The notes under the pieces were generated by a model that made no database searches, had not been told where the DNA came from, and saw only the letters and a program-made list of their open reading frames with translations. A stretch of DNA of 45,920 nucleotides from the sequence record SRR20825010_2866; one strand, written 5' to 3'. The position numbers were made by a program, and so were the translations under genes. Positions within the stretch are counted from its first letter, which is position 1. The number at the start of each line of letters is the position of its first letter. Positions 601-26,053 of the stretch are shown here, one piece after another.

Positions 601-616
601 CTGAATTCTTGCTGAA
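601..616 (-). promoter_or_regulatory. Direct-repeat box 1 (TTCAG-CAAGAA-TTCAG) facing the cupredoxin gene
   Basis: 11-bp-period repeat typical of OmpR/PhoB-family sites; one of 10 similar copies. Confidence 0.7.
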
Positions 617-636
617 AATATCGAACTAATTGGTCG

Positions 637-652
637 TTCAGGCTGAATTCAG
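637..652 (+). promoter_or_regulatory. Direct-repeat box 2 (TTCAG-GCTGAA-TTCAG) facing RR1; probable autoregulatory site
   Basis: GACACT (-10-like) at 663-668, exactly 10 nt downstream. Confidence 0.72.
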
Positions 653-714
653 GTTGATCGGCGACACTCGTTTCACATTTGGCTCACAGCCTGGTTCAAA
701 GAAGGAACGTCGTG

Positions 715-1380
715 ATGCGATTACTGCTCGTTGAAGATGACCGTTTGCTGGCTGACGGACTAAGTGGACAGCTTGAAAAGGCGGGGTTCAGCGTTGATAC
801 AACCTATACAGCCAGAGAAGCCGCGATCCTGGGCGAGCAGGAGGATTATCGGGCCGCCGTTCTTGATCTTGGCCTGCCTGACGGCAACGGATTAGACGTA
901 TTAAGGAAGTGGCGAAAACACAAGATCGCCTTTCCGGTGCTCATTCTCACAGCAAGGGGCGACTGGCATGACAAAGTTGAAGGCCTCAAAGCGGGGGCAG
1001 ACGATTACTTGGCAAAACCCTTTCAGACCGAGGAGTTGATTGCCCGGCTCAACGCCATTGTGCGCCGAAGCGAAGGGCGTATTCATTCAATGGTAAAAGC
1101 CGGACGCTACGAATTGGATGAGAATCGTCAGAGCTTGAAGTCCGACGACGGCAAGGAACACAGCCTCACCGGCACCGAATTTCGCCTGCTGCGCTGTCTG
1201 ATGAGCCGTCCCGGCCATGTTTTCTCGAAAGAGCAGCTAATGGAACAGCTTTACAACTTGAACGACACTCCGAATGAGAACGTGATCGAAGCTTACATTC
1301 GCCGATTGCGGAAACTGGTTGGCAACGACACCATTGCAACCCGTCGCGGCCAGGGATATCTGTTCAATGACGCTGTTTAG
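715..1380 (+). CDS. OmpR/PhoB-family response regulator RR1 (QseB/BqsR-like)
   Basis: MRLLLVEDD, LDLGLPD, LTAR, GADDYLAKPF receiver; winged helix ending TRRGQGY; SD AAGGA. Confidence 0.95.
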   Translation: MRLLLVEDDRLLADGLSGQLEKAGFSVDTTYTAREAAILGEQEDYRAAVLDLGLPDGNGLDVLRKWRKHKIAFPVLILTARGDWHDKVEGLKAGADDYLAKPFQTEELIARLNAIVRRSEGRIHSMVKAGRYELDENRQSLKSDDGKEHSLTGTEFRLLRCLMSRPGHVFSKEQLMEQLYNLNDTPNENVIEAYIRRLRKLVGNDTIATRRGQGYLFNDAV

Positions 1381-2722
1381 TAAGCCGAGATCTGTCAAAG
1401 GCACGTTGCTTTTATTGCTACTGCCTGCCGGCATTGCGTTAATGGGGCTTGCATGGCTGGTTCACGGCCTCTTACTGGACCGAATGTCCCGGGAGTTCGT
1501 GGAGACACGTCTCAAAGATGAGGTCGCCTTTCTGGAGCACCAGATTCGTGATTCTGGCGGTCAATTGGATAGCCTCCAGACCGGTGACTACTTTCAGGAA
1601 GTCTTTCACCACGCCTTCGCCATACATTCTCCGTCCAAGACTATCATTTCCCCGGATTCGTGGGCGCCGGTGTTAACGTCGTTGATTGAATCAGCGGAGG
1701 ATGGAACCCTTCGTGTGCAGAACGGAGATACAGTCGAAGGACCCAAGAACATTCTTGCGTACCGAAAATCGTTCCAGATGGACGATACGCCGATTGTAGT
1801 GATCGTGTCCGAGGATCTCGGCGCACTGAAACGCAGCCAGGCAGAGTTGCACGCGTGGACGGCCATTGTCTCTATTCTGCTGATTCTGCTCCTGGTCGTT
1901 GTGATCTGGTTCGGTATCAATTTGTCCATGCGCCCTGTCGTCGAGCTAAAGGCTACGCTAAAGCGACTTCAAGATGGCAAGGTTTCTCGGATTCATGTTC
2001 AGGCGCCTGAGGAGTTTCGACCACTAGTCCAGCAGCTCAACCAATTACTCGATTCGCTTGATCAACGACTGGAACGGTCAAGGGATGCGCTGGCGAATCT
2101 CTCTCACAGCGTCAAGACCCCGATTGCGGCCGTCCGGCAGGTTCTTGAGGACACCAGCCGTCCACTCTCCAACGATCTCCGCCTTCAGATGACCTCGAGA
2201 CTCAATGACATCGACAAACAGCTTGAAGCCGAGATGCGCCGAAGTCGCTTTGCAGGACCACAGGTTGGAAAAAGCGCTTACCCTCTGAAACAGGCGAGGG
2301 ATCTACTTTGGATGCTGGGGCGGCTATACCCGGAAAAGTCCTTTGAACTGTCGAGTTCTCTGCCGGAGGAAGCCCGCTGGCCGATTGAGGAACACGACCT
2401 GAATGAAATCATGGGCAATCTCCTGGACAACGCAGGCAAATGGTCAGAACGATGTGTAGAGCTGTCACTCGTTCAGAATTCCGGAACACTGAAGATCTGC
2501 GTGACAGACGATGGGGCAGGCGTCCACGAGGCAGAAATCAGCAAGCTGGGTCAACGGGGATTGCGGCTGGACGAGCAGACCCCAGGCCATGGCCTTGGGC
2601 TGGCGATTGTTCGAGAGATTGTCGAACGCTACAGTGGAACCCTCCACTTCTCACCTGCTCCGAAAAGTGGGTTGTCCGTGATAGTTGACCTTCCCAGGGC
2701 GGTGCCGGTGATCAATCGTTGA
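1367..2722 (+). CDS. Sensor histidine kinase HK1 (QseC/BqsS-like)
   Basis: Two TM segments, HAMP, H-box LSHSVKTP, N-box GNLLDNAGKW, DDGAG, GHGLGL; overlaps RR1 stop. Confidence 0.95.
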   Translation: MTLFSKPRSVKGTLLLLLLPAGIALMGLAWLVHGLLLDRMSREFVETRLKDEVAFLEHQIRDSGGQLDSLQTGDYFQEVFHHAFAIHSPSKTIISPDSWAPVLTSLIESAEDGTLRVQNGDTVEGPKNILAYRKSFQMDDTPIVVIVSEDLGALKRSQAELHAWTAIVSILLILLLVVVIWFGINLSMRPVVELKATLKRLQDGKVSRIHVQAPEEFRPLVQQLNQLLDSLDQRLERSRDALANLSHSVKTPIAAVRQVLEDTSRPLSNDLRLQMTSRLNDIDKQLEAEMRRSRFAGPQVGKSAYPLKQARDLLWMLGRLYPEKSFELSSSLPEEARWPIEEHDLNEIMGNLLDNAGKWSERCVELSLVQNSGTLKICVTDDGAGVHEAEISKLGQRGLRLDEQTPGHGLGLAIVREIVERYSGTLHFSPAPKSGLSVIVDLPRAVPVINR

Positions 2723-2801
2723 CCCGGCCACCTGGTATGTGGTTAAGCGATCACATGTGGATAGTGTTTGTATAGAAAACTTTCCTCACAGTAATGCCTT
2801 T

Positions 2802-2817
2802 TTCAAGCTAGATTCAG
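2802..2817 (+). promoter_or_regulatory. Direct-repeat box 3 (TTCAA-GCTAGA-TTCAG) facing RR2
   Basis: Same consensus and spacing, ~115 nt upstream of the RR2 ATG. Confidence 0.65.
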
Positions 2818-2931
2818 CTTCGTCTGTTGTTATAGCGGGTCGCTTGAAGTCCGATCTCTTAGCTAATTTTGATTTGCTCTCGAGAAGGGCGACAGCCACA
2901 ATTTTCCAACATCCAGAGACGGCGCTTATAG

Positions 2932-3600
2932 ATGAAGGTTCTAATTGTCGAAGACAACGCGGTACTCGCAGAAAAAATCTCCGTTTGGCTTGCGAAGGAA
3001 AACTTTACTGTAGATGTTGCCCAAAACGGAAAAGAGGCAAATTTCTTCGTAGAGACAAGCAGTTATCAGGCGATCATTCTGGATATAGGACTGCCCGACG
3101 AGAACGGGCTTTCTTTGATGCAAAAATGGAGAAGCAACGGCAAAGATGAAGCCATCCTGATTCTAACTGCCAGGTCCAACTGGACAGAGAGAGTTGAAGG
3201 CTTGAATGCCGGGGCAGACGACTATCTTCCAAAACCGTTCGAATTTGATGAACTGAAAGCTCGACTTAGCGCCATCATAAGAAGAAAAGACGGGCGAACA
3301 ACTGATAAGATAGCGGTTGATGGGTTTCTTCTAAGTTCAACCTACAGAACGCTAACAACCCCTGATCATAAAGAATTCAGGCTAACCGCAACAGAGTATC
3401 GCCTTCTTCAATGCTTCCTTCGATCTCCTGACAGAGTCTTTTCCCAGGATGATCTTGTTGAATCACTTTACAATATCGAAAGATGCCCAACGCGAAATGT
3501 TGTTCAGGTATATATTGCGAGGCTTAGGAAAATACTTGGGAAAAAAAGAATAAAAACGTTGAGAGGGCAAGGTTACTATTTCGCGAGAGAGACCCACTAA
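2932..3600 (+). CDS. OmpR/PhoB-family response regulator RR2
   Basis: MKVLIVEDN, LDIGLPD, GADDYLPKPF, TLRGQGY; clear paralog of RR1. Confidence 0.95.
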   Translation: MKVLIVEDNAVLAEKISVWLAKENFTVDVAQNGKEANFFVETSSYQAIILDIGLPDENGLSLMQKWRSNGKDEAILILTARSNWTERVEGLNAGADDYLPKPFEFDELKARLSAIIRRKDGRTTDKIAVDGFLLSSTYRTLTTPDHKEFRLTATEYRLLQCFLRSPDRVFSQDDLVESLYNIERCPTRNVVQVYIARLRKILGKKRIKTLRGQGYYFARETH

Positions 3601-3610
3601 AAAATTTATA

Positions 3611-3647
3611 CTGCGAGTCACGTCAGTAACTCTCACCTGACTCGCAG
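3611..3647. terminator. Hairpin between convergent RR2 and small-protein genes
   Basis: CTGCGAGTCA...TGACTCGCAG 10-bp inverted repeat. Confidence 0.55.
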
Positions 3648-3659
3648 AAAACCAAAAAA

Positions 3660-3899
3660 TTACTGTTTCTTCAATAGATCAGCAACTAGCTCCTTGATTA
3701 CTCGATGCTCTTCCTTCAACTTCTTGACCGTCTCGCTTTCTTCAGAACGATAGTCGGAGGACCGTTCATCGATGCTCTTATCAGGGTAGCTTCTTGCCTC
3801 ATTATACCTATCTGCTTGTCCGCCATTGCTGCCTGCGAGGGCTATGGAAGCCCCGGTTCCTAGAAAAGATGCTATTAAAATTACAGACACTTTTTTCAT
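3660..3899 (-). CDS. Small secreted hypothetical protein (79 aa)
   Basis: SD GGAG, signal peptide MKKVSVILIASFLGTGASIALA, charged helical mature part, own upstream box. Confidence 0.75.
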   Translation of the reverse strand: MKKVSVILIASFLGTGASIALAGSNGGQADRYNEARSYPDKSIDERSSDYRSEESETVKKLKEEHRVIKELVADLLKKQ

Positions 3900-3973
3900 A
3901 AACAGCTCCGATATGTCATTCTATTCAACCAACGAAATTCAATCGCCTTACGCAGTTAGTAGAACATCGAAAC

Positions 3974-3989
3974 CTTAAACACATTTGAA
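3974..3989 (-). promoter_or_regulatory. Direct-repeat box 4 (TTCAA-ATGTGT-TTAAG) facing the 79-aa gene
   Basis: Consensus match; TCTACT 10 nt downstream. Confidence 0.65.
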
Positions 3990-4201
3990 TGTGGACGTAT
4001 TTTAAAGATCTTCACATTCCGTAAACTACAGGCCCACAGCTATTCAGGCAGATTTTGACAAGACTAAACGAACGACCAAAGCACAACCCCTCCAGCGTCA
4101 GGTGAGTTGCGACACGCATCAATCCCATCTATGCTTTCAAGCTCAGTCGCCTCTCTAGCCCGCAGCTAGCTCCTCCCGCTCAATCGACCATAACTAATAC
4201 C

Positions 4202-5524
4202 ATGACAGCGCAGAAAAGCATCCGAAAAACTGCACTCCAATATGGCATCGTTTTCAGCCTCTTGTATTTTCTACTAATTTTTTTCTCGCACACTTATGTA
4301 ATAGAGCAGCTCTCGAACGAGTCCAGAAAACATCGCCTTGACAAGGAGGTGGAGAGTTTTCAAACCATCATTGAAAACGAAGTTCCGACGCCCGACGAGA
4401 TTGGCAGCATGATTGATCGATTCCAATTGCTACTGGAGCACGCCCTCGTCGTCGAAATGAAAGACGGAAGCATCATTGCCAGTAGCAACATAGATCAAAC
4501 AACGTTGCGCATGGTTTCAAGAAAGCCGGCGGGCTTTGTAGAAATATCCCAAGGTGCAGATGGCCTTCTTGGATTGAAACGAGGTGTCGGAATTGATAGT
4601 CCGCTTTCGTCAGTCACCATCCTGGAAATGGAAAGCGGACTAGCTGAGCGATCCAGTGGGGCTCACCTGACCTTGCTGGCTGCCTCCGCATTATTACTTT
4701 TTGTTCTCTTGGCTCTGGTAGGCACCACTACTTACCTCGCTTTGAAACCGATCGAACACATCAAGGAAGACATGAGGAGACTGCAATCTGGCAAACAACC
4801 TCGTTTGAATCCTGACGCACCAGAGGAGTTCAGTCCGCTGATCAAACAGTTCAATAACCTACTTGAACTAGCAAGTCGTCGCCTTGACCGCCATCGCCGC
4901 CTCAATTCCGATCTTTCTCACATGGTCAAGACCTCGATCTCTGCCAATCTCGCAATCTTGTCAGACACTGGTTCATTACCTCCGTCCCGCGACGACATAG
5001 AGTTCATGACCTCCAACCTAAAGGATCTAAGCCGGTCCTTGAACTACCGCATGAGCAAGGCAGATATCTCCGGCAGGCAGATGGGGCAAACATGTTTGCC
5101 GATTGAAATAGCGAACAACGTCATTTCTGTCATGGAAAAAATCTTTCCCGATAAGAGTTTCCGTATCAATACATCCTTGCCGAATAACTTCAGTTGGCCC
5201 ATGGAGCGTCAGGACCTATCAGAGTTATTCGGTAACCTGCTCGAAAACGGCGGGAAGTGGAGTCAGGCTGAGATTGACGTTTCAATAAGCCAGACCGATT
5301 CCGGGCTAACGATAGAAGTTGCAGACGACGGCCCTGGGATTACTCCAGAAGCGGCCTCAAAAGTGATGGATAGAGGTTCCCGGCTTGACGAAACCGTTTC
5401 TGGATTTGGATTGGGACTGTCCATCGTGTCCGAAATACTAGAAGACAATTTCGGACGGATGAACATTGGCCCCTCAGAAACAGGGGGCGCCAGGATTACA
5501 GTTGTGCTTCCTTTCCCAGAGTAG
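4202..5524 (+). CDS. Sensor histidine kinase HK2
   Basis: Two TM segments, HAMP, H-box LSHMVKTS, GNLLENGGKW, DDGPG, GFGLGL. Confidence 0.92.
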   Translation: MTAQKSIRKTALQYGIVFSLLYFLLIFFSHTYVIEQLSNESRKHRLDKEVESFQTIIENEVPTPDEIGSMIDRFQLLLEHALVVEMKDGSIIASSNIDQTTLRMVSRKPAGFVEISQGADGLLGLKRGVGIDSPLSSVTILEMESGLAERSSGAHLTLLAASALLLFVLLALVGTTTYLALKPIEHIKEDMRRLQSGKQPRLNPDAPEEFSPLIKQFNNLLELASRRLDRHRRLNSDLSHMVKTSISANLAILSDTGSLPPSRDDIEFMTSNLKDLSRSLNYRMSKADISGRQMGQTCLPIEIANNVISVMEKIFPDKSFRINTSLPNNFSWPMERQDLSELFGNLLENGGKWSQAEIDVSISQTDSGLTIEVADDGPGITPEAASKVMDRGSRLDETVSGFGLGLSIVSEILEDNFGRMNIGPSETGGARITVVLPFPE

Positions 5525-5611
5525 AGCACAACCATAATTCCTCCGCCCCGCTATGACGGAGGGATTACCCTCCCCTGCTGGCGATCAAAACTGTGTATTT
5601 CCACCTCTCTT

Positions 5612-8600
5612 CTACCGTTGCATATCATCGAGTTTAGCCCTTGAGAAGCGCGTGAATAGAGCCGGTAAAACAAAAAGCGTTAGGAAAGTCGCAGTCACGA
5701 GACCACCTACAATCACGCTGGCCAGTGGCTTCTGGATTTCCGCACCCACGCCCGTCGACAATAGCATCGGTATCAAACCGAGTGCCGAGGTTATTGCTGT
5801 CATCAAGACAGGGCGCAAACGGGAGACGGCACCTTCAAACACCGCGGCATCCACGCTTAACCCATCCTGTATTCGCTGATTGATGCTTTCGACCATAACG
5901 ACCCCGTTAAGCACCGCCACACCGAACAGCGTGATAAATCCAACGGAACTGGGCACTGAAAGATACTGACCGGAGATCCAGAGTGAAAAGACGCCACCAA
6001 TAACGGCAAGCGGCACGTTGACCAGAATCAACAATGCTTGACCGACCGAACTGAAAGCAAAGTACAGCAACAGCGCGATCAGGCCCAGAGATACAGGAAC
6101 CACAATGGTCAATCGCTTCTGAGCTCGCTGCTGGTTTTCAAACTGACCACCAATATCAACCGAGTAGCCGGGGGGAAGGTTCACTTCTGACGCGATGGTA
6201 TCCTGAATATCGGCAACCACACTGCCCATGTCACGACCCTGCACATTGGACTGAATGACCACACGGCGCTGAACGTCATCGCGGCGCACCTGAGGCGGGC
6301 CAGACTCAATAGACACATCGGCCACATCGCCGAGTCTCACCCAGGCTCCGGACGGCGCCTGTAACCTGAGATCGGCAATGGCATCCCGGTCTTCCCGGAA
6401 ACGTTTGGCCAGACGCACATAGATATCATACCGCTCATTTCCGTTGATGATCTGGCCAGCGGCGGCACCACCCAGTCCATCCCGGACGACACTCATCACA
6501 TCAGACACGGCGAGTCCGTACCGGGAGAGTGCCTGACGGTCAGGCTGAACCACCAACTGCGCTTCACCAGCAATCTGCTCCATGGCCACGTCTCGTGTTC
6601 CCTGAACTGTTCGGACCGCCGCTTCAATCTTCTGGCCTTTCTCCGCCAGTACGTCGAGATCCGGGCCAAAGAGTTTGATGGCCAACTGCGCACGAACACC
6701 TGACAACAATTCATCAACCCGAGTCGCGATAGGCTGAGAAAAGTTAAACAGTAGCCCCGGGTGCTGTTCGAGCTTCTCCTCAAACAGAGCCTGCAATTCA
6801 TAGCGATTACTGGCGCTGGTCCACTCCGAAGTGGGTTTTAAGCCAATATAGATCTCTATATTGTTAACGGGCTCCGGGTCGCCGCCTATTTCTGCTCGGC
6901 CAGCCCGGGATAGAGCGTAAGTCACTTCTGGAAACTCCATCAACATGGCTTCCAGTTTTGGCGCAACTTCAAGCGCCGTATCAAGGCTTGATGAAGGGGC
7001 GAGCGTCACCCGGAGGTTGATCGTTCCTTCTTCCAGCTCAGGGACAAACTCAGTGCCGAGTCGAGGCACGACCAGAGCCGCCAGCACCACAAGAACAGCG
7101 GCAGCACCGACAACAGATCTGGTGTGTTTTAGCGACCAGTCAAGGCCCTTGCGGTAGAGCTTCTCAAGAGGTTTTAAAACGAAGCTTTCCCGCTCCCGAA
7201 TACCCTTGCGAAACATAAACGAAGCCAACGCAGGCACAACCACCAGAGCGACGATCACAGCGGACACAATGGCCAGCATGATGCTGATCGCCATTGGCTG
7301 GAAAAGCTTGGCTTCCACACCTTCAAAACTGAACAGAGGCATGAAAACGACCAGAATAATCGCCGTCGCGAAAAAGATGGGGCGCGCCACTTCCCGACCG
7401 GCTTCCTGGAGTCTAAGCGCAATGCCATGATCATCATGTGACGCGTCCAACGGATCGGGGTCGTTTTCAACCAATTCATCCCGATGGGCGTCATGCTCAG
7501 CATCGGGATGCGTCAGATGTTTGAACATGTTCTCGACCATAACAACAGAGCCGTCCACCAGCATGCCAATTGCCACAGCAATGCCGCCCAGAGACATCAA
7601 GTTGGCCGAGAGACCGAACCAGGCCATGATCATCAGCGCAATACCGATAGAAATCGGTATAGAAAGCAGCACGAGCGTTGTTGCCCGAAGATTCATCAGA
7701 CACAGGGCAAGCACGATAGCAATGAACACAAAAGCCAACAGAAGCGCATTGGTCACCGTCTCTACGGCCTTGGTCACCAGATCCGCCTGGTTGTAATAGG
7801 GCTCAAAACGAACCCCACTCGGAAGCGCCTGATTTATGCGATCAATGCGGGCCTCGATGCCGTCGATGGTGGCTTTTGTATTGGCCCCCATTCGTTTGAG
7901 TACAATGCCAGAAACCACTTCACCCAGTTGTTCAACTTGACCGTCTTCATCCTTCCGGGTCATGGTCACCGCACCCTGGCGAATTTCAGTGCCCAGCGCT
8001 ACTTGGGCGACATCGCTCACCGTCACTGTAATGCCATCACTGGTTTTAACGGGCACTTGACGGATCTGCTCCAGCCCCTGCTCGCCATTACCCAGCCAGC
8101 CCATACCGCGAATAACCAACTGCTCCTGCCCGCGGCCCATATACCAGCCCCCAACATTGGAGTTGTTGTTCTCCAGGGCTTCCATGACATCGTTCTGTGA
8201 TAAGTCATAGGACAGCATTCGCGCCGGGTTCAGGTTAACCTGGTACTGGCGGACCTCTCCGCCAAACGACAGGATTTCTGTCACCCCTTCAGCAGGTATC
8301 AGCAACAGTTTGACCAGCCAGTCGTGCAAGCTGCGCAATTCCATTGCGTCGTACCCCGAATCCGGGTCCGCTATCAGCAAGTACTGGTAGACCTGGCCAA
8401 GACCGGACGTATTCGGCCCCATTTCAGGCACCCCGACCCCGTCCGGAATCAGCTCCCGCGCGGCCTGCAACCGCTCGAAAACCAGTTGGCGCGCGAAATA
8501 GATATCCGTGCCCTCTTTAAAGACCACGGTGACACCAGACAACCCGGTTTTGGAGATGGACCGAACCTCCTCAACATCCGGCAACGCATACATCACCGCT

Positions 8601-8809: not shown

Positions 8810-8823
8810 AATGGCTCCCGGAA

Positions 8824-10074: not shown

Positions 10075-10098
10075 GATGAATATCCAGTTTCCAGAATA

Positions 10099-11316: not shown

Positions 11317-11409
11317 CGACTTTCTCCCGAAGCGATTTATAGCCAAAAAATGATAGGCGTATGGCGCCTATGACGAGGTAGGAAGAGGCCGAGATAATAA
11401 ATGCGAACT

Positions 11410-11425
11410 TTGAAATGAGTTTGAA
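11410..11425 (-). promoter_or_regulatory. Direct-repeat box 5 (TTCAA-ACTCAT-TTCAA) facing RND operon 2
   Basis: Consensus match; TATTAT 11 nt downstream. Confidence 0.68.
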
Positions 11426-11889: not shown

Positions 11890-11906
11890 AAACCGCCTCC
11901 TGACTA

Positions 11907-15014: not shown

Positions 15015-15028
15015 GCTCCCCCCGAGTA

Positions 15029-16213: not shown

Positions 16214-16262
16214 CTAAACACCTTCGACGTAAAAGAATCTTCAACCATTAATTTTCTTGTCA

Positions 16263-17564: not shown

Positions 17565-17646
17565 TCAATATCATCCTGGCTATTTGACTGAGATACATGA
17601 ATCAGCGTTTTCGCCGTAAATGCCAGGACGACCCTACAGACAGACC

Positions 17647-17662
17647 TTTAAATCAGTCTGAA
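17647..17662 (-). promoter_or_regulatory. Direct-repeat box 6 (TTCAG-ACTGAT-TTAAA) facing RND operon 1
   Basis: Consensus match; TAGGGT exactly 10 nt downstream (17631-17636). Confidence 0.68.
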
Positions 17663-17789
17663 TTCGGCGCCATCAAACCTAAACTCGTACGGAGTTCAAC
17701 GAAACTATGGCGGGGTATACGCCAAAAAGAGGTGAAAGAAAGAGACAAAAGAGGAGGGCATCGTCCAGCGCATGGGAGGGAGCGCAGAT

Positions 17790-17821
17790 AAAAAACGACG
17801 GGCCTATTTCAGCCCGTCGTT
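17790..17821 (-). terminator. Rho-independent terminator of the DcaP-like porin gene
   Basis: AACGACGGGC-loop-GCCCGTCGTT followed by a T run on the minus strand. Confidence 0.8.
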
Positions 17822-17854
17822 GGGTCCAATTATGTGAAGCAACACTATGAACGA

Positions 17855-19108
17855 TTAAAAATCGAACTGCGCAGCCAGTTGCAGGCGAGTGTTATCAGCA
17901 GATTCGCCATTGGCCAACTCTTTGTCTGCGAAGGAAAGCTCCAATCCCAGCGTTACCGGGTCAGCAACTTTGTAGAAGTTGCTGAAGTGAACGCTTTGCA
18001 GGGTTTCAAAGGAGTTTGGGAACAGATCTGCTGGCTGATCGCCCTCTACCCGCCCATAGGACAGACCAGAGGAGAACTTCGGCGTCCACTGCTGACTGAT
18101 AGCAACGTTGGCACCGTATGCCTCAATGGTTTCAAGATCGCCGTTGGCGTCGATGTATGCTTCACCAATACCAGTGCGGCCAGCGCTGCTGTCGTTATTG
18201 CTGAAGGAACTGTAGATGTAACGACCCACGCCGTCACCAAAGATCGCCCCTGCCATGACCGTGGTGGCGTCGGTCAGGTTTAGCCGACCAGCGATCAAAA
18301 CGCCATAACCAAAGGCGTTATCGTCGCCCGTAGCAGCTGCAGAGTCAGTCTGAAGCGAACGTGCCAGACCGGCAACTTCAATGCCACCAGCACTGCCGGC
18401 CCACTTGTACTTGGCAGTCAGATCCGGCGCATTATCGCGGGAGCCGTCAAAACCCGTTGTTTCCGGATTCTCAGCAGAAACGGAAAAATTAGCACCGCCG
18501 CCAAGAGGCATGGTGTAGCGCAACTGTGCCTGACGAATAAAAGAAACACCTACTGGACCGTCGAAATCAACCGTGGACGGATAGGCGGTAAATTGCATGA
18601 AGTTACTCCAGGTTTGACCGGCGAGCAGGCCGTTCAGCTCACCATAGGCGTGACGAAGACGCAGCCCTCTGGAGTTGGAGAAAATTTCATTACCGCCACC
18701 ACCGTAGAAGTCACCTTCAACGGTCGTTTTGACATCACCCACTTCGGTTGGCGTGGTTGTCTTAATCCGAACCCGTGATTGTCGAGCATGGGCTCGGAAT
18801 GAAGGGTCGCTATCGCTATTAGCAGTATCAAGGCCTGCTACGAACAGGCTGTCACCCATGTCCTGATCAAAATCATAGATCATGTCCAGCTTGACATAGC
18901 CACCGATTGTTACAGTGGTGTTAGTGCCAGGCACCATCCAACCTTCCGACCCCTTACTTTCCGCCATGTCATCCAATTGGCGCTGCAAATCATTAATCTG
19001 TGTCTGAAGTTCAGTTGCAGATTGCGCATGAACAGACGGGGCCAGCAGACCCGTAACCGCAAGCGCTAGTGTTGCTCTCATCGCTAACCTGAGTTTATTA
19101 GTTTGCAT
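17855..19108 (-). CDS. DcaP-family trimeric outer-membrane porin
   Basis: Signal peptide, short coiled coil, IGGYVKLD, ARQSR, LRLRHAYG, LAGQTWSNF, RQAQLRY, terminal F. Confidence 0.9.
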   Translation of the reverse strand: MQTNKLRLAMRATLALAVTGLLAPSVHAQSATELQTQINDLQRQLDDMAESKGSEGWMVPGTNTTVTIGGYVKLDMIYDFDQDMGDSLFVAGLDTANSDSDPSFRAHARQSRVRIKTTTPTEVGDVKTTVEGDFYGGGGNEIFSNSRGLRLRHAYGELNGLLAGQTWSNFMQFTAYPSTVDFDGPVGVSFIRQAQLRYTMPLGGGANFSVSAENPETTGFDGSRDNAPDLTAKYKWAGSAGGIEVAGLARSLQTDSAAATGDDNAFGYGVLIAGRLNLTDATTVMAGAIFGDGVGRYIYSSFSNNDSSAGRTGIGEAYIDANGDLETIEAYGANVAISQQWTPKFSSGLSYGRVEGDQPADLFPNSFETLQSVHFSNFYKVADPVTLGLELSFADKELANGESADNTRLQLAAQFDF

Positions 19109-19273
19109 TGTAAATCAGTCTCCATGAGCTTTCGTTGTATGTCATCTGACCGGTACTTGGCCCTGAACAAACAGACAGCTAATGCGCTTCAGTTGTCGGC
19201 CACTACCGGTAAGTGGTTCATTGATCTCGCACTTTCCGCCAGAACAACGACTCGCCATTGATAGCAGATGAAC

Positions 19274-19289
19274 TTGAAACGAAATTGAA
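19274..19289 (-). promoter_or_regulatory. Direct-repeat box 7 (TTCAA-TTTCGT-TTCAA) facing the DcaP porin
   Basis: Followed by GTTCATCTG, as is box 8; TATCAA 10 nt downstream. Confidence 0.7.
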
Positions 19290-19374
19290 AAAGAGCCCCC
19301 TTAATACCTTTGTATTAACGCCCCATCGCAACCGCTCTTATAACTGTGCCCTTTTCATCATCTAATTTTATTTT

Positions 19375-19390
19375 TTCAAGCTGAGTTAAA
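19375..19390 (+). promoter_or_regulatory. Direct-repeat box 8 (TTCAA-GCTGAG-TTAAA) facing the 98-aa gene
   Basis: Mirror partner of box 7, sharing the GTTCATCTG extension. Confidence 0.68.
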
Positions 19391-19440
19391 GTTCATCTGT
19401 TTCCATCGGGATGCAGACCATTCAACTTAAAGGTGACTCT

Positions 19441-19737
19441 ATGAGAAAACATCTCTTGCTCACATCTCTAGCATTAACCTTGGCGGCAGGAAGTCTCCAT
19501 GCCTCTGAGGCCAATGACGGCAGCCTGGCACAAAACATGCTCTCCGAAAGCAGCGTTCAGGACATGAAGAGACAGCATAGGGTAATGACTCAGGCAGCCT
19601 TATCTAAAGTAGGCATGGAAGCTCGCCGAAAATTGATGCAATCGAATAAAGACGACATTTATCACGAGATGATAAAGTCGGGCGATATTAATCTATCTAA
19701 ATCAGACCAATTCTCAAAAGATCAGCTTACTCATTAG
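19441..19737 (+). CDS. Small secreted Met/His-containing hypothetical protein (98 aa)
   Basis: SD AAGGTG, signal peptide ending SLHA, own box and downstream terminator. Confidence 0.78.
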   Translation: MRKHLLLTSLALTLAAGSLHASEANDGSLAQNMLSESSVQDMKRQHRVMTQAALSKVGMEARRKLMQSNKDDIYHEMIKSGDINLSKSDQFSKDQLTH

Positions 19738-19842
19738 AAATAATGTCGCACCAATAGCTTTTTCGATTGAATAATAGAAACTTGTCGATACACGACATTC
19801 TAAAACCAGTTGCATCGTGAATGGTCTCCACCATTCCGTCTT

Positions 19843-19872
19843 GCCGCACTACTTTTGTAGTGCGGCTTTTTT
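19843..19872 (+). terminator. Rho-independent terminator
   Basis: GCCGCACTAC-TTTT-GTAGTGCGGC-TTTTTT. Confidence 0.85.
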
Positions 19873-19923
19873 AGGCCTAGATTTAGTCGATAACAAATTC
19901 TAACCACCTGCTTGGCAGACAAC

Positions 19924-21237
19924 ATGCCCAGAAAACAACAACGCCCTTCAATAAAACGGAAACTGCTTACTTTTCTGACACTAACGGGTTTCGCGTGTAC
20001 CGGGCTAATATTCTTCTCACACACCCTTTTAATCGACTATATCCATGACGAGCTTCACAGGCAGCAGCTAGAGGCTGCAGCTAACCGACTCTCAAAGATG
20101 CTAACAAATGATAAAGAAGAAATTACAAAATCCTCTCTCAGAAATTTTTCATTGTCTCAATATTCTGTTCACATCGAAGACAGTCAAGGTCGGAGTTTTA
20201 CAAGCGAGAACATTAAACCGAAATTACAGGTGGTAGAATCGTTCAAAAAGCCTGGAATTTTTCACATATCGGATGATGATCGCTCAATCCTTGGCTACTA
20301 CAAAATATTTAATAACAGACAAGATAAACTAAGCGTTACTATAATTGAAAAAAGCTCCTACTCCCCAAACACGCTTGACAAAATTCACATTCTTATATGG
20401 ATAATATCTTTTGCAATTCTCGTTACGATATCAATGATCATATTTATTGGGGTAACTATCGCACTAAAACCCTTAAAAATGATGAGTTCCCAATTAACGT
20501 CGCTTAAAAAGGGTGAGCGTAATAGACTGGATGAGAACGTACCTGAAGAATTCAATGAACTTGTCAAACATCTTAATCGTCTATTAGAGTCGTACGACAA
20601 AAAACTTACCCGTTCACGCCACCTAGCCGCAGATATTTCTCATAGCTTAAAAACCCCCCTTGCCGTCATAAATTCCATGATCAATGACGAAGCCATTCCC
20701 ACCACAATCGCGAGTCAAATTAAGTCTCAACTGTCTGAAATGCACGAGCTGATCGACACTCAAATGAGAAAAACCGAAATGTCCGGTCAGTACATTGGAA
20801 AGGCGACACCGATCATTGAGAGAACTCTGGCACTGGTGGACGTAGTCAGTCGAATCTATCCTTACAAACAGATCCATCTTCAAGAAACATTACCCAGAGA
20901 GCTTGTCTGGCCAATTGATGAGCGTGATTTTAATGAGATCTTGGGTAATGTGCTTGATAACGCAAGCAAATGGTGCTCTCAGGAAGTTCATCTACACTTG
21001 AAACTTCACGATGACACTTTGACCATTCTTGTTGAAGATGACGGCCCCGGAGTAGCGTCACACCAACTCGCCGATCTTACCAGGCGCCAGAAAAGACTGG
21101 ACGAAAAAACCCCTGGCTATGGCCTTGGCCTATCAATCGTTGAGGAAATCATCAATGACTACGGTGGCGCCATGCATTTTTCTATATCACCCAAAGGTGG
21201 TCTTCGGGTTCTAATCGAGCTTCCCAGAAGCATTTGA
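19924..21237 (+). CDS. Orphan sensor histidine kinase HK3
   Basis: Two TM segments, HAMP, ISHSLKTP, GNVLDNASKW, DDGPG, GYGLGL; visibly AT-rich. Confidence 0.92.
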   Translation: MPRKQQRPSIKRKLLTFLTLTGFACTGLIFFSHTLLIDYIHDELHRQQLEAAANRLSKMLTNDKEEITKSSLRNFSLSQYSVHIEDSQGRSFTSENIKPKLQVVESFKKPGIFHISDDDRSILGYYKIFNNRQDKLSVTIIEKSSYSPNTLDKIHILIWIISFAILVTISMIIFIGVTIALKPLKMMSSQLTSLKKGERNRLDENVPEEFNELVKHLNRLLESYDKKLTRSRHLAADISHSLKTPLAVINSMINDEAIPTTIASQIKSQLSEMHELIDTQMRKTEMSGQYIGKATPIIERTLALVDVVSRIYPYKQIHLQETLPRELVWPIDERDFNEILGNVLDNASKWCSQEVHLHLKLHDDTLTILVEDDGPGVASHQLADLTRRQKRLDEKTPGYGLGLSIVEEIINDYGGAMHFSISPKGGLRVLIELPRSI

Positions 21238-21267
21238 CGACTACAAGGGCAACTTATCCAGCTTTAG

Positions 21268-22806
21268 TCAGCGACCAGTAGGCATAGCAGCCCGATACAC
21301 CAACGTCTCAACGTCAAAACTGTCACTTTGAACTGAGTTTTCATCCGGCGACATAAAGAATAACTCTGTATTGCCTGATACGGGGGACACCGGAGCCGAC
21401 GTTAGAAGACTTGTTGACTGCGTTTTAGGAGATTTCCCGGATCTCAGCGTCAACCAATCAACTCGAGTATCATAAACACCTATCATATCTTCGGCTGCAC
21501 TGGATTCCTGTGGAATCCCGATATTAACTGCGTCCCCACCGGAGCGTACGAGCAGGTTCGGCAAAAATAGTGTTTGCCTCGGACTAAACACCAACTCAGG
21601 CGACACGTCGTAAGTCATACTCGTGCCTGACACCCGGTTTCCAATCTCATAGTCCAGATGTGGGCCCTCAGTGCCAGCAGGGAAAAATGAAACCTTCCCT
21701 TGGGAGACGGTCACCATATTCAAAGGTCCCGGTTTGTTCTGAACAACGGCACCGATTACCCGAAACACCGGCGTGTATCGGCTTAACTTTTCATGATCGG
21801 CCTTATCAAGGTCAGGCCCGTTCGGTGAGATTAATATCTCATAAACCTCTGAACCAAACCCCTGCTCTGAGTAGAAAGACTGCCCGAGAATAGTTTCCCG
21901 GCGACCGTCAGCGTCCAAATCCTGCAATCCCAAAATTAAGGGAATGAAACCGATGGCTTCGGCCTCCCCCTCGGCCAACTGGATCAAAGAACTTGAAACA
22001 CTACGGCCATTCCACTGATTTAAAATGAGGTAATATGAGTTCTCTGAAACGTACCAGTCCATTCGGATAACTTTCTCCCGACGGGGCACCTCAATGGACG
22101 CCAGGCTCTGAACAGCCCCGCTGGAATCAACAAGGAAAAAGCTGAGTTTGTTTCCATGCTCCGCCGCAAAATAGTAATCGCTGCCAGAACGAAACGCGGA
22201 CAACGACTTTGCGTTGATGGGCAGTCTGGCAAATGGAGACGCTAAAACCTCCTCCTCAACTGAACCTACCCGACGTTCTTCATCATCGGTCTGTACGATG
22301 CCGACCAACCAGGTGTTATTGTAGGTCGCAACGGCTTGACCTCTCCCGGTAACTTGAAAGCGCACCAATGGCACATCGTTTGACGCCTCTGGCTCGTCCC
22401 GCCACAAAAGATCAGGAAATCGGGCTTTCAACGCCGGCGTTACCGCCCTGGGGTCGCCGGCTCTGTCAGTAAACACCGCCGGGATACCGTAAAAGCGTTT
22501 CGCTACAGCTCCAACGGAGGGCATCGTTCCAAACAGCACTTTCCCTACTGCTTGATCCTTTCCGATACTCTCGATACCGATGACTGAAGGATTTTGTTCC
22601 GGGATGCCTGCATTATCAGGCTCCCGCAACACAACAAATAAATCACCCACCTCAGCAGTGGCATCGTCAACTGTGAGGGAAAGCACTTTTTGATCACGAT
22701 CTACCTGAGTGACCTTTGCCTTTGCGGGATGCTCACGCTCAACCGCCTGTACCGCACCAGCTAGTAGTAGCATCAGGAACACAAATACTGCAGAACGAGT
22801 CATCAT
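21268..22806 (-). CDS. Secreted hypothetical protein with one FG-GAP/VCBS-like motif
   Basis: Signal peptide ending AVQA; DLDADGRRETILGQ Ca-binding-loop-like motif; beta-rich C-terminal half. Confidence 0.75.
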   Translation of the reverse strand: MMTRSAVFVFLMLLLAGAVQAVEREHPAKAKVTQVDRDQKVLSLTVDDATAEVGDLFVVLREPDNAGIPEQNPSVIGIESIGKDQAVGKVLFGTMPSVGAVAKRFYGIPAVFTDRAGDPRAVTPALKARFPDLLWRDEPEASNDVPLVRFQVTGRGQAVATYNNTWLVGIVQTDDEERRVGSVEEEVLASPFARLPINAKSLSAFRSGSDYYFAAEHGNKLSFFLVDSSGAVQSLASIEVPRREKVIRMDWYVSENSYYLILNQWNGRSVSSSLIQLAEGEAEAIGFIPLILGLQDLDADGRRETILGQSFYSEQGFGSEVYEILISPNGPDLDKADHEKLSRYTPVFRVIGAVVQNKPGPLNMVTVSQGKVSFFPAGTEGPHLDYEIGNRVSGTSMTYDVSPELVFSPRQTLFLPNLLVRSGGDAVNIGIPQESSAAEDMIGVYDTRVDWLTLRSGKSPKTQSTSLLTSAPVSPVSGNTELFFMSPDENSVQSDSFDVETLVYRAAMPTGR

Positions 22807-22840
22807 AGGAAAAAGTCACTTAATGCGGATTCATTTCGTA

Positions 22841-22882
22841 TAACAAAAGCGGGGTGGCGCTCCCACCACCCCGCTTTTGTTA
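22841..22882 (-). terminator. Terminator-like hairpin right after the porin stop codon
   Basis: Perfect 17-bp inverted repeat TAACAAAAGCGGGGTGG / CCACCCCGCTTTTGTTA. Confidence 0.8.
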
Positions 22883-24286
22883 GAACTTGTACCTTACCCG
22901 ACCAGCAACATGAACAATGTCCTGATCGCTTTTGCCGTCCTGTAAGGCAGTTTCCTCCAGCGCATCCATGGCATCGCCTGATGCCAGGTATGCAGCTTCT
23001 GCCGACAGCTCAAGCGAAGGGTATGGGAGGTACGAGACCTTGGAGCCAAATTCCAGTCCGAGATCTTTTGAGGACGATCCATCGGCAAGTGCAATGTCCT
23101 CAGCCAAGCGGTTGTAGACAATCATTCCGCTGACCGTAATATTGGCCGCTACTTTATGATCGAGCTGTAGCTTGTTCATGAAATACCCTTTGTCGAGGAT
23201 ATAGGGCGTTTCGGCGAAGTAGTCATCGCTCGTCATGTTTTCCTGAAAAATCATACTGTCGCTGAAGTCGACATCCGTGGCGATGAAGGCGTCGAAGTCC
23301 GCGTCTTGCTCATTGCCATCGCCCGATGCGTAGAGCACGGTGTACGTCAGTTGGTTTGGTCCAAATTGCAGCCCGAGCTCGCCGCGTCCCAGAAAGGTCG
23401 AAAGGTCATAGTTCGTATTGGGATTCCTAGCACCATTCAATGGGACGAAATTTACACCTTCTATTGTTCCGCTTTGGCCAATCACCGTACCCTTCACGAA
23501 CATGCGGCCTAGCGACGTCTCCTGACCATAATCCATCTCCACCCCAAAGCTGGAAACGGAATATTTGGAGTTATCAGCGATACTCTTCAGTTCATACTCC
23601 CTGCTATTTACCGTACCTACTCCCTCAGCAATTTGATCATTCATCTGATAGAGATAGAATAGGCCCGCGCTCAGGTTCGGTGAGTAACGCTTGTTCAGGT
23701 TGATCGCGAAGTTGTCCGCGCCATCCCAGCCTTCGTCCTGTTCTGAGTCGACGCCGCTCTCATTGGAAGAGTCACCTCGCCCCCATAACAACTGATAGTC
23801 AAATCCAGAGCCCAGTGAGCCTTTCCAAACAGCGGCTGTGGCGGTTTCAGTCCAGACATGTCGGTTCACTGACACTGGCTGCAAGCCCAGCGATACGCGC
23901 TGGGCTAGCGTGTTGGGCACCAAGAAATCCACATAAGCCCACCGTGTTTCGATGTTCACACCATCACCGGAATAGTCGCCACCCGCCCCCTCACCGTAGC
24001 GGATGCCACCAATCTCCGTCGCGAATACACCGGTAACTTTCTTGTCGTCGGAAGTTGCCTTCGCCCAGAAGCGATATTTGACCTCGCCGAAGCTCTCGGT
24101 CGGCTCGTCATCTTTCAGCGTACCGCCACCTGAGTTACCACCAGAAAACCAGTCTCTTTGATTGGTGTAAGCCTGAAAGCGGTTATCCATATCACCGTGG
24201 AATTCAATCTCCGCTGCCGTCGCGGCCCAACTTCCCGACAGTGTTGTCATCCCTGCAATCGCAGTGGCCAGAATGTTGCGTTTCAA
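22880..24286 (-). CDS. Outer-membrane beta-barrel/porin, resembling Desulfobacterota OmpJ-like porins
   Basis: TTG start with SD GGAGGGG, signal peptide, alternating beta-strand pattern, C-terminal RYKF. Confidence 0.8.
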   Translation of the reverse strand: MKRNILATAIAGMTTLSGSWAATAAEIEFHGDMDNRFQAYTNQRDWFSGGNSGGGTLKDDEPTESFGEVKYRFWAKATSDDKKVTGVFATEIGGIRYGEGAGGDYSGDGVNIETRWAYVDFLVPNTLAQRVSLGLQPVSVNRHVWTETATAAVWKGSLGSGFDYQLLWGRGDSSNESGVDSEQDEGWDGADNFAINLNKRYSPNLSAGLFYLYQMNDQIAEGVGTVNSREYELKSIADNSKYSVSSFGVEMDYGQETSLGRMFVKGTVIGQSGTIEGVNFVPLNGARNPNTNYDLSTFLGRGELGLQFGPNQLTYTVLYASGDGNEQDADFDAFIATDVDFSDSMIFQENMTSDDYFAETPYILDKGYFMNKLQLDHKVAANITVSGMIVYNRLAEDIALADGSSSKDLGLEFGSKVSYLPYPSLELSAEAAYLASGDAMDALEETALQDGKSDQDIVHVAGRVRYKF

Positions 24287-24386
24287 TGTAATCCCCTCCA
24301 GTTTCTTTCTTGATTGTTTGTGATATCCGATTCGTACGGATCGTGGCGTAAATCTTAAAACCAGCTAGAACAACGGACTAAAGGTC

Positions 24387-24417
24387 AAAAAAAAGGCGGG
24401 AATGAAGCATTCCCGCC
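24387..24417 (-). terminator. Rho-independent terminator downstream of the classical porin gene
   Basis: GGCGGGAATG-CTT-CATTCCCGCC followed by T8 on the minus strand. Confidence 0.85.
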
Positions 24418-24461
24418 ATTAAATAACCTTAGTTAACTCGCAAGTAGGTTCTCACACGAAC

Positions 24462-24477
24462 CTTAAATGAACTTGAA
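24462..24477 (-). promoter_or_regulatory. Direct-repeat box 9 (TTCAA-GTTCAT-TTAAG)
   Basis: Consensus match with GTTCG extension; flanks resemble box 5 over ~40 bp. Confidence 0.68.
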
Positions 24478-24534
24478 ATCCGGAAAAGATTTCAGATACG
24501 TCGGTCTCCCTGTATTCAGCGATCACGCTCGACC

Positions 24535-25524
24535 CTACATGGAAAACTTATGCTCGAAGCCCACACCAAATGTGGAGTCCTCAGAGTCAGCCAAGTCCGC
24601 CTCCACCTGAGACACGTAAGCATAAACCTTACTCTTGCTAGCCAGTTTATAATCGAGCCCCAAGGCCAGCAGGGTTAGCTCCTCGTTTGTTGTCTCGGCT
24701 TCTGTCAGTCCGTACTGCGCCTTGATCTTCCAACGCTCAAGGTTAACGGCACCGCCAACCAGATAAGACGTATCTTCTCCAGGGCCATCGCTTTCTTCTG
24801 CCAACTGGTAAACTGCGCCGATCTCGAAGTTGCTTAATCGGACCTTCCCTACGGTTCGCAGGATATTGAGACGACTATCGCCACTTGAATCGGCTTCCAG
24901 TGAATCTTCGATATCAGAATCGTAGGCAATACTGCCGTAGAAATGGTCGTTCTCAAACGTAAAAGAGCTGGAAACTGCATCCGCAGGTCTGTCGTTCTCT
25001 GCCCCAGCTGACTGCTCTTCACCCGGGATGACGGCAACACTAACGCCCACAGCATCAAACAGACGTGGAGAACTGTATTGAACAATGTTGCTGGTCCGAT
25101 TTTCACCAGCCATGATATTTTTTATATCCGCCTGTAGGTCGTTGAACTGGTCAACCTTGCCCTGCGCTGACTTTAAAGGTGTATCAAATTTTCCCGCAAT
25201 CAGTGCACCAAGGTTCGCCTGCTTGAAGCCACCGTAAATATTACGCTGCGAGAAAGTCTGGCCATCCTTATCTCCATCATCAATCGATATTTCAAATTCT
25301 GCCTTGTAGATCGCCTCCAAGCCTTCGAGGTCGGTATTGAGCGCCCCTTTTACCCCCAGACGGGACGCATTACTCTGGAGCTTCCAGGTATCGCTATTAC
25401 CGTCGTCCTGGTTTTCATACGAAACATTGGCTTTGCCATACAGGATAGGACCTTCCGCCGCTAGTGCATTCATTGAAGTTACTGCAACCCCACCAAACAC
25501 CAACATTGATAGACACTTTTTCAT
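24535..25524 (-). CDS. Gram-negative general porin (Porin_4-like)
   Basis: LYGKANVS, SNASRLGVKG, FSQRNIYGG, AGKFDTP, VQYSSP, GFEHKF; SD GAGG before ATG 25524. Confidence 0.92.
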   Translation of the reverse strand: MKKCLSMLVFGGVAVTSMNALAAEGPILYGKANVSYENQDDGNSDTWKLQSNASRLGVKGALNTDLEGLEAIYKAEFEISIDDGDKDGQTFSQRNIYGGFKQANLGALIAGKFDTPLKSAQGKVDQFNDLQADIKNIMAGENRTSNIVQYSSPRLFDAVGVSVAVIPGEEQSAGAENDRPADAVSSSFTFENDHFYGSIAYDSDIEDSLEADSSGDSRLNILRTVGKVRLSNFEIGAVYQLAEESDGPGEDTSYLVGGAVNLERWKIKAQYGLTEAETTNEELTLLALGLDYKLASKSKVYAYVSQVEADLADSEDSTFGVGFEHKFSM

Positions 25525-25668
25525 GAGCACCTCTTCAGATTAGATAGATTCAAAATGACACTTGAAGTCTTTCAAATGCTGAGTAGATGGTGCTTTGCAC
25601 TTATTGCAGAGTTGTTACATTTTTAAATTTTTTCTTTGTATTTCAACAACCTAAAACAAAAACCTTTT

Positions 25669-25700
25669 ATTATATCCTTTGACACTGAATTGAACTTGAA
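25669..25700 (-). promoter_or_regulatory. Direct-repeat box 10 (TTCAA-GTTCAA-TTCAG, 25685-25700) with perfect -10 TATAAT (25669-25674)
   Basis: TATAAT begins exactly 10 nt after the box. Confidence 0.75.
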
Positions 25701-26017: not shown

Positions 26018-26053
26018 CGTTGCTCAAACTCCTTTTTGACGTACTCCAGTTCA

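Follow-up and report, generated by a model that had tools for sequence, protein, structure and literature searches.

Tandem TTCAR-N6-TTMAR boxes in a metal-resistance region fall into a copper class and an island class and probably serve two related response regulators

The DNA analysed here is the 45,920-nucleotide (nt) stretch of sequence record SRR20825010_2866 (the window, by which we mean that stretch at its full length). It comes from a Marinobacter-like genome and contains ten copies of a tandem box, TTCAR-N6-TTMAR; these are non-random and very probably sites for two related response regulators of the OmpR family (RR1 and RR2) whose genes lie among them. An earlier note on this DNA had listed the ten sites, all of whose coordinates and strands we confirm, and had assigned them to one programme. 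The second proposal is not supported in this form, because the sites divide both by origin and by sequence: two (601 and 637; boxes are named by their first position) belong to a chromosomal copper locus, and the other eight to an insertion. The reading that we prefer, with a probability of roughly 0.6, is that there are two circuits, in which RR1 would read the 601/637 copper set and RR2 would read the eight island boxes, with the bound regulator activating transcription in place of a -35 element.

The window contains exactly ten matches to the motif, compared with a mean of 0.87 and a maximum of 4 in 100 whole-window dinucleotide shuffles. All ten lie in the non-coding share of the gene map, which amounts to 4223 nt (9.2% of the window), and 2000 shuffles of the intergenic DNA alone gave a mean of 0.13 matches and a maximum of 2. 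The boxes are also confined to one side: left of 26,200, intergenic DNA amounts to 2937 nt and holds all ten, and to the right of it the 1286 nt contain none, in line with the earlier remark that none was seen in intergenic DNA right of 25,700. The description of the sites as intergenic stands for the gene map and needs one correction. Box 25685, scored non-coding, lies in the 3' end of a 115-codon open reading frame (ORF; 25670-26017, minus strand) and hence not in plain intergenic DNA; this ORF appears to be what is left of a saccharopine-dehydrogenase gene of which a related plasmid has an intact copy. With a 24-nt weight matrix the ten boxes score 22-32 bits (values inflated by training on the same ten) and everything else at most 9.8 bits, so that the set is discrete. 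The best near-miss, at 37562 (9.1 bits) ahead of a topoisomerase gene, is probably due to chance. Widening the first half-site to TTMAR returned the same ten sites in the window, and allowing one mismatch added 14 sites, for a total of 24 against 18.06 expected, a number reached by 8 of 100 shuffles and hence attributable to chance.

The geometry of the boxes is consistent with that of a promoter-proximal regulator site. The period from TTCAR to TTMAR is 11 bp in all ten, and the box can be read as two 11-bp units, TTCARGyTnAn repeated twice. Only 16-24 bp are common to the window boxes, and their flanks are unrelated. The triplet 3' of the box is G(G/T)T in seven of the ten, which agrees with the earlier statement that most are so followed, and the six hexamers named at that time (TATAAT, TAGGGT, GACACT, TATCAA, TCTACT and GAACCT) do start 10 nt past a box. 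A -10-like hexamer with A at its second and T at its sixth position starts at this point (+10) in six of the ten window sites. Among loci collected from other genomes (see below), nAnnnT occurs at +10 in 61% of 229 unique non-coding contexts versus 8% of 36 coding controls, and flanks that extend the pattern (TT before, GTT after) are confined to the non-coding sites. All five boxes that are flanked by same-strand genes point along those genes, and each of the ten faces a gene, in agreement with the earlier claim. The features expected of an OmpR/PhoB-type site are thus present: an 11-bp tandem, a nearby regulator with REC and winged-helix domains and a box before its own gene, and a fixed distance to the -10 element.

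RR1 and RR2 are 47% identical. For both, the best NCBIfam model is PmrA (NF007928), with scores of 202 (RR1) and 194 (RR2) bits that remain below the cut-off of 330. Scores against the CopR/CusR/CzcR model (TIGR01387) are 149.4 and 144 bits, respectively, also below the cut-off (279.2), which bears out the earlier view that the system is unlike CzcRS or CusRS. The best solved relatives are BasR/PmrA (8jo2, 4s04) and, for RR1, also CarR/BqsR (8gc6). By sequence comparison, the nearest relatives of both regulators are PmrA/BasR and BqsR/CarR, not CopR/CusR/CzcR. The note had pointed to the BqsR/CarR box, and the boxes of these relatives share the 5+6+5 layout and overlap the -35 element. The three sensor histidine kinases of the window (HK1, HK2 and HK3) are full-length paralogues of one another, with 30-32% identity.

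Species-representative genomes scanned with RR1 yielded 80 loci with 84-95% protein identity, a collection that is by design centred on RR1. Most are from Marinobacter, and others are from Alcanivorax/Alloalcanivorax, Halopseudomonas, Pseudomonas abyssi, Vreelandella and Allohahella. The divergent pair of boxes before RR1 is retained in 75 of the 77 orthologues with enough upstream DNA, and the two are 35 bp apart in 66 of 76; the earlier claim that boxes stand before both regulator genes is supported, and the boxes are evolutionarily conserved. When 68 unique copI-RR1 spacers are aligned, the conserved blocks are the boxes themselves, each with about 18 nt 3' of it, while the leaders vary; box 601 is at least 90% conserved. 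Altogether, 82 loci (1.50 Mb) contain 318 box matches, of which 46 are scored as coding and 272 as non-coding, labels that are approximate because crude ORF rules were used. In the 52 loci that have complete flanks but lack RR2, 174 non-coding sites are found in about 29 kb of ORF-free DNA on the side of RR1 with the copper genes, compared with 8 in about 26 kb on the opposite side; since orthologous sites do not count as independent, these large numbers show consistency and are not a sample size. Together with the context features, this asymmetry means that the box is not a general property of intergenic DNA. In these loci, equal frequency in unrelated intergenic DNA, which the note had named as grounds for abandoning the idea, is thus not what is seen.

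The collected sites separate into two classes. TTCAG/TTCAG accounts for 196 of the 206 unique non-coding sites on the RR1 side and for none of the 22 sites that precede orthologues of island genes (at least 72% identity). These 22 begin with TTCAA (TTCAG in one) and end in TTTAAR, TTTCAA, GTTAAA or TTCAG. In the window, boxes 601 and 637 are TTCAG-N6-TTCAG and the remaining eight are of the island class. Both classes occur on a Halomonas plasmid, where the sole island-type box precedes a pump adjoining an RR2-like gene and the cop genes carry TTCAG/TTCAG; TTCAAGTTCATTTCAA is retained there before the orthologue of RND pump 1.

Division by origin follows the same line. Positions 4172-25000 of the window are 93.5% identical to a conjugative plasmid of Marinobacter salarius, pHL2708Z5, which retains eight of the boxes and encodes an RR2 orthologue, HK2 and HK3, with no RR1. 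The DNA 3' of HK1 resumes at window position 35,976 in M. algicola and at 33,920 in M. goseongensis; these junctions define a variable insertion, from about 2.7 to 33.9 (or 36.0) kb, directly after HK1. Judged by these comparisons, the eight boxes other than 601/637 are in a horizontally acquired insertion of about 31-33 kb with its own RR2. Its contents include RR2, HK2, HK3, two heavy-metal RND pumps, three outer-membrane channel genes and two small secreted proteins. The left junction is common to three close genomes (L003, L005 and L006), and box 2802 is retained before the RR2 orthologues of these three and of the plasmid (L001). No word of 10 nt or more is shared by the island edges, which hence give no evidence of an att site. 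A search with RR2 returned only two close plasmids, plus relatives at about 44% identity or below, and a search for diverged island copies with the porin-like protein matched the same Marinobacter plasmid only.

The genes that follow RR1-type boxes elsewhere strongly imply that copper is the signal of RR1-HK1. In one locus (L012), a minus-strand box precedes copI, a multicopper oxidase gene (copA) and CopB, and another, at a distance of about 3.3 kb, lies ahead of genes for a small protein, an amino-acid-permease-like protein and a P-type ATPase that has YHS and HMBD domains. In other RR1 loci, boxes are found ahead of Met-rich periplasmic proteins (13 sites), multicopper oxidases, CopC, an outer-membrane factor, an ECF sigma factor and others. 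Plasmids show the same association. The Halomonas KO116 plasmid has 10 boxes versus 0.47 expected, located before copC, plastocyanin, two multicopper oxidase genes (one cut by an insertion sequence) and two DcaP genes. A Hydrocarboniclastica plasmid has 6 versus 0.38 expected and a copI-linked regulator 63% identical to RR1, and the Halomonas THAF12 plasmid has 3 versus 0.04 and a copI-linked regulator 52% identical to RR1; the boxes of these two precede plastocyanin, regulator, multicopper oxidase and neighbouring genes. In HK1, the periplasmic residues H74, H97, H98 and H178 are conserved in at least 97% of 73 unique orthologues. The inducing ion, which the note had called unknown, can in this way be narrowed for RR1-HK1, though not for RR2, with copper as the probable signal.

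In the mechanism that we propose, the ten boxes are predicted binding sites for dimers of PmrA/BqsR-like OmpR-family regulators. A phosphorylated dimer would bind the two tandem 11-bp units, ending 10 nt before a weak -10 hexamer, and would stand in for the -35 element and recruit RNA polymerase, as shown for PmrA and BqsR. In the chromosomal circuit, HK1 would sense periplasmic copper, and RR1 would bind TTCAG-N6-TTCAG at 601 and 637 and switch on the copI operon and its own. In the island circuit, RR2, fed by HK2 and HK3, would read a variant box at eight promoters, with TTCAA as the first half and TTTAAR, TTTCAA or TTCAG as the second. Given the similarity of the boxes, cross-reading may occur, for example by RR1 at the mixed box before RR2. 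The identity of the binding proteins, activation, the copper signal and the division of labour between RR1 and RR2 are all points that we infer.

The recognition helices offer a possible basis for the two classes. In PmrA, T187, N188, V192 and H195 contact the TAA bases of CTTAAT/CCTAAG, and N188 contacts the AA of the PmrA box, according to the available part of the structural report (PMC10570014). By alignment, these four positions are E, N, A and R in RR1, and R, N, V and A in RR2, so that N188 is kept in both and V192 in RR2 only. The helix of RR2 is RNVVQVYIARLR in all five orthologues. Residue 191 is E in 80 of 80 RR1 orthologues and in three distant copI-linked regulators, all of them near TTCAG boxes, and is Q in 5 of 5 RR2 orthologues; E versus Q at this position thus appears to track G versus A at position 5 of the box. 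Positions 192 and 195 were considered as a specificity switch and rejected, because the copI-linked regulators of Halomonas have V192 and A195 like RR2, yet are beside TTCAG boxes.

Several points weigh against two circuits, in addition to the two cautions on the counts given above. The classes overlap, since island boxes 2802 and 25685 end in TTCAG and 17647 starts with it, and the island class represents one lineage (the window, the 93.5% identical plasmid, three close genomes and one Halomonas promoter). The link to residue 191 has one independent Q lineage only, and residues 192 and 195 do not follow box type. The +10 hexamer is without the A2/T6 pattern at four of the ten boxes; the weight-matrix scan of the window gave no box that faces HK2 or HK3, and none before the CDF genes; and the substrate of the pumps is left undecided by their scores and motifs (see below).

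A single regulon, in which RR1 and/or RR2 read all ten boxes interchangeably and one metal signal switches all of the genes, is an alternative that we regard as unlikely. All ten boxes do fit one 16-bp pattern with a common spacing and -10 offset, N188 and most of the helix are common to both regulators, three island boxes have a TTCAG half-site, and the island directly follows RR1-HK1 in the window and in L003, L005 and L006. The genomes sharing this junction are close (90-96% identical DNA), though, and may reflect one inherited event. Origin separates the box classes cleanly; a plasmid that has RR2 and no RR1 carries the island as a working unit; RR1 orthologues in the 52 island-free loci use TTCAG/TTCAG almost exclusively; and RR1 and RR2 differ at three of the four positions with which PmrA contacts bases. 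An elaboration of the two-circuit reading, which we offer tentatively and would not ourselves expect to hold in full, is that the island paralogue and its eight promoters drifted together (E191Q in the helix, G to A at box position 5), so that the island could be wired partly apart from the host copper circuit and partly into it, the mixed RR2 box being the link; promoter 24462 would then yield an RNA of about 50 nt that depends on the regulator, or an attenuated leader, and not simply an mRNA.

Repression, in which the regulator would block the promoters it overlaps at some sites, especially the porin promoters and the one with a perfect TATAAT, is improbable. Metal-responsive regulators lower porin expression in Pseudomonas, and box 25685 precedes a consensus TATAAT, which might need no activator. 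BqsR is also reported to switch between activation and repression (PMC13522522, in the part available). Against this, the box-to-(-10) distance is identical at porin and pump promoters, a consensus scan found no separate -35 hexamer at either, and such geometry means activation for PmrA and BqsR, as far as the available parts of the reports describe it (PMC10570014, PMC4358008). Lastly, the link of RR1 and RR2 to the box is itself indirect, and a third OmpR-family regulator is encoded at 40083-40811, but it is very improbable that an unlinked regulator reads the boxes or that they are relics of a short repeated element, given the box pair before RR1 in nearly all orthologues, the box before every RR2 orthologue but the Halomonas one, the unrelated flanks around a common core of 16-24 bp, the fixed orientation and -10 offset, and the fact that the box family is that of the closest characterised regulators.

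Table 1. Features of the window discussed in the text (+10, hexamer starting 10 nt after the box; aa, amino acids).
Feature	Position	Strand	Remarks
CopI-like cupredoxin gene	1..501	-	Pfam Cupredoxin_1 and Copper-bind; cut by window end
RR1-type box TTCAGCAAGAATTCAG	601..616	-	copI-like cupredoxin promoter; GATGGT at +10
RR1-type box TTCAGGCTGAATTCAG	637..652	+	RR1-HK1 promoter, 62 nt from RR1 start codon; GACACT at +10; putative autoregulation
RR1, OmpR-family response regulator, 221 aa	715..1380	+	Pfam REC and Trans_reg_C; homologues 221 aa
HK1 sensor kinase	1319..2722	+	HATPase_c
Variable insertion 3' of HK1	2740..33920		right edge 33,920 or 35,970 by genome compared; blastn against L010, L004 and L007
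Island box TTCAAGCTAGATTCAG, mixed type	2802..2817	+	114 nt ahead of RR2
RR2, OmpR-family paralogue of RR1	2932..3600	+	Response_reg and Trans_reg_C
79-aa protein, signal-peptide-like N-terminus	3660..3899	-	between RR2 and HK2
Island box TTCAAATGTGTTTAAG	3974..3989	-	74 nt ahead of 79-aa secreted-protein gene
HK2 sensor kinase	4202..5524	+	faced by no box
RND pump 1: OEP, HlyD-type adaptor, CusA/CzcA-family permease	5612..11346	-	TIGR00914
Island box TTCAAACTCATTTCAA	11410..11425	-	before RND pump 1 (outer-membrane factor, adaptor, pump: 11346 -> 5612)
RND pump 2 (OEP, adaptor, permease) and P-II-like gene	11545..17564	-	TIGR00914
Island box TTCAGACTGATTTAAA	17647..17662	-	before RND pump 2 and P-II-like gene (17564 -> 11545)
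Terminator-like hairpin of DcaP-family porin gene	17821-17794	-	upstream of box 17647
DcaP-family porin gene	19108 -> 17855	-	faced by box 19274
Island box TTCAATTTCGTTTCAA	19274..19289	-	165 nt ahead of DcaP-family porin gene
Island box TTCAAGCTGAGTTAAA	19375..19390	+	before 108-codon secreted-protein ORF 19411-19737
Terminator-like hairpin, 10 pairs and T6	19843-19866	+	strong; between 108-codon ORF and HK3
HK3	19912-21237	+	3' of terminator-like hairpin 19843-19866
512-aa FG-GAP-like gene	22806-21268	-	Atlas lead only
468-aa porin-like gene	24286-22880	-	faced by box 24462; Atlas lead only (porin- or alginate-export-like)
10-bp GC-rich hairpin and T8	24395..24417	-	about 20 nt past predicted 24462 promoter start
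Island box TTCAAGTTCATTTAAG	24462..24477	-	then strong terminator-like hairpin, porin-like gene, FG-GAP-like gene
Porin_4 porin gene	25530 -> 24535	-	faced by box 25685
Island box TTCAAGTTCAATTCAG	25685..25700	-	TATAAT at +10; 154 nt ahead of Porin_4 gene

Several features in Table 1 deserve comment. The CopI-like protein is truncated by the window edge and scores 187 bits against a cut-off of 280 for NCBIfam NF051440, but it passes the Pfam cupredoxin cut-offs. The true start of HK1 is probably inside the ORF listed, overlapping the end of RR1. Pfam and NCBIfam gave no family match for the 79-, 108- and 512-aa proteins. Both pump permeases exceed the cut-off of TIGR00914 (CusA/CzcA; 701.45 bits), with 1068.6 bits for pump 1 and 1132.7 for pump 2. 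Compared with solved structures, pump 2 scores 718 bits with ZneA and 670 with CusA, which does not decide between copper and zinc. CzcA-type divalent-cation pumps have a DFG...DGA...VEN motif in transmembrane helix 4; in the two pumps this helix is IGMLVDGSVVMVEN and IGMMVDGAVVMIEN, with no Asp-Phe-Gly and no match to that motif.

The hairpin after box 24462 (24417-24395) folds with -19.1 kcal/mol (z = -3.7), and none of 200 shuffles folds as well. The porin gene upstream of this box ends before it, and the two observations together suggest either that the 468-aa gene has an attenuated leader or that the promoter yields an RNA of about 50 nt (24385-24442, minus strand). Rfam at its gathering thresholds gave no match for this element or anywhere else in the window. 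A second candidate leader hairpin, after box 11410 (11371-11353), was set aside as weak: it has 7 pairs and z = -1.07, and 35 of 200 shuffles reached an equally good fold. Over positions 1-17600, terminator-like matches are at chance level overall (19 versus 17.2). Because a strong terminator-like hairpin separates the 108-codon ORF from HK3, box 19375 may act mainly on the gene of the small secreted protein, and expression of HK3 would then depend on read-through or on a promoter not recognised here. Upstream of boxes 11410 and 24462, the adjoining 30 nt are alike (11425-11455 and 24477-24510, minus strand; …tatctgaa…ttttccg.a…), which suggests that these two promoters are duplicates of each other.

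The right part of the island (CDF transporters, lspA, DUF3703, DsbA, CtaG, SCO1, MFS and HupE/UreJ) is free of boxes, and something else must therefore regulate it. On the plasmid, a TorF-family porin gene is located between RR2 and the 79-aa gene (L001 10063-11452), where the window has only 59 nt (3601-3659) and L003 has a 1.4-kb gap (12880-14289); the window appears to have lost this gene. The plasmid also has a gene for a TonB-dependent receptor between pump 1 and the P-II-like gene (L001 19646-21700), which the window does not. Farther to the right, the third OmpR-family regulator is followed by genes for a FecR/LysM-domain protein and a CHASE2-PAS histidine kinase (40083-45051, plus strand), with no box and no metal genes nearby.

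Two observations concern RR1 loci elsewhere. On the Hydrocarboniclastica plasmid, an RR1-type box (L083 16181-16196, minus strand) is 98 nt ahead of egtB-egtD, the genes for ergothioneine synthesis, a hint that the copper regulator of this organism controls a thiol-histidine antioxidant pathway. The RR1 loci L055-L069 are seemingly near-identical: they agree in match coordinates, in identity to RR1 (86%) and in site positions, among them a conserved match at 10786, scored as coding. Their hosts are Marinobacter, Alloalcanivorax, Alcanivorax, Halopseudomonas, Pseudomonas abyssi and a metagenome-assembled genome of Methylococcales, and this near-identity suggests that the copper locus itself has recently spread horizontally.

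In kind, the system is an ordinary OmpR-family regulon. Four features appear to be new: the consensus of the box; cop genes in several marine genera that are served by a PmrA/BqsR-like lineage and not by CopR/CusR; a paralogous regulator-and-box pair on a mobile island that has one regulator with two kinases; and the inclusion of three outer-membrane channel genes. Searches of a collection of open-access papers found no description of the box, and it is not mentioned in the available parts of a paper on Alteromonas copper genomics and one on the Marinobacter atlanticus transcriptome; the latter describes a co-expressed copper gene set, which could not be mapped to the window genes. The combination of TTCAG-N6-TTCAG with this regulator lineage provides a testable copper-resistance box for Marinobacter, Halomonas/Vreelandella, Hydrocarboniclastica, Alcanivorax and relatives, and could predict copper regulons where the regulators are annotated merely as response regulator transcription factors. 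The coexistence of a chromosomal and a conjugative-plasmid regulator/box pair is also a natural case in which to study insulation versus coupling of a transferred regulon.

Among known systems, the closest in layout is BqsR/CarR of P. aeruginosa, whose box, TTAAG-N6-TTAAG, overlaps the -35 element. As described in the available parts of two reports (PMC4358008, PMC13522522), it shares with the window system the 5+6+5 tandem and, on the reading proposed here, the -35 overlap, autoregulation of its own operon and a response to a metal ion, and the receiver domain of CarR (8gc6) is among the best solved relatives of RR1. It differs in that the first half-site is TTCAR in all ten window boxes, with C where BqsR has A, that the window targets are copper and heavy-metal efflux genes and not polyamine, lipopolysaccharide or feo genes, and that neither RR1 nor RR2 passes any equivalog model. 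PmrA/BasR provides the best NCBIfam model and the best solved relative of both regulators, and N188 is kept. Its box (CTTAAT/CCTAAG) is at -35, where PmrA contacts sigma region 4 and the beta flap (complex 8JO2; available part of PMC10570014). The likeness stops short of equivalence, given the model scores (202/194 versus 330 bits), the replacement of T187, V192 and H195 (by E, A and R in RR1, and R, V and A in RR2), an acidic sigma-4 patch (E172, D182 and E184) that is not clearly kept in the window regulators, and a window without lipid-A modification genes nearby. With CopRS, CusRS and CzcRS, the window system has in common a two-component system, probably autoregulated, beside copper and heavy-metal genes (RND pumps, multicopper oxidase, cupredoxin). 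RR1 and RR2 do a similar job from a different OmpR-family lineage (149/144 versus 279 bits), the island has one regulator with two kinases, and the boxes of CopR and CusR differ from the window box. The arrangement of the chromosomal locus resembles CinRS-cinAQ of P. putida and PA2807-PA2810 of P. aeruginosa, in which a plastocyanin-like cupredoxin gene is divergent from a copper-sensing two-component operon; the CinR-type regulator is of the CopR lineage, unlike RR1. The cop genes would be a case of non-orthologous replacement, headed by a PmrA/BqsR-like lineage and not by the textbook CopR/CusR.

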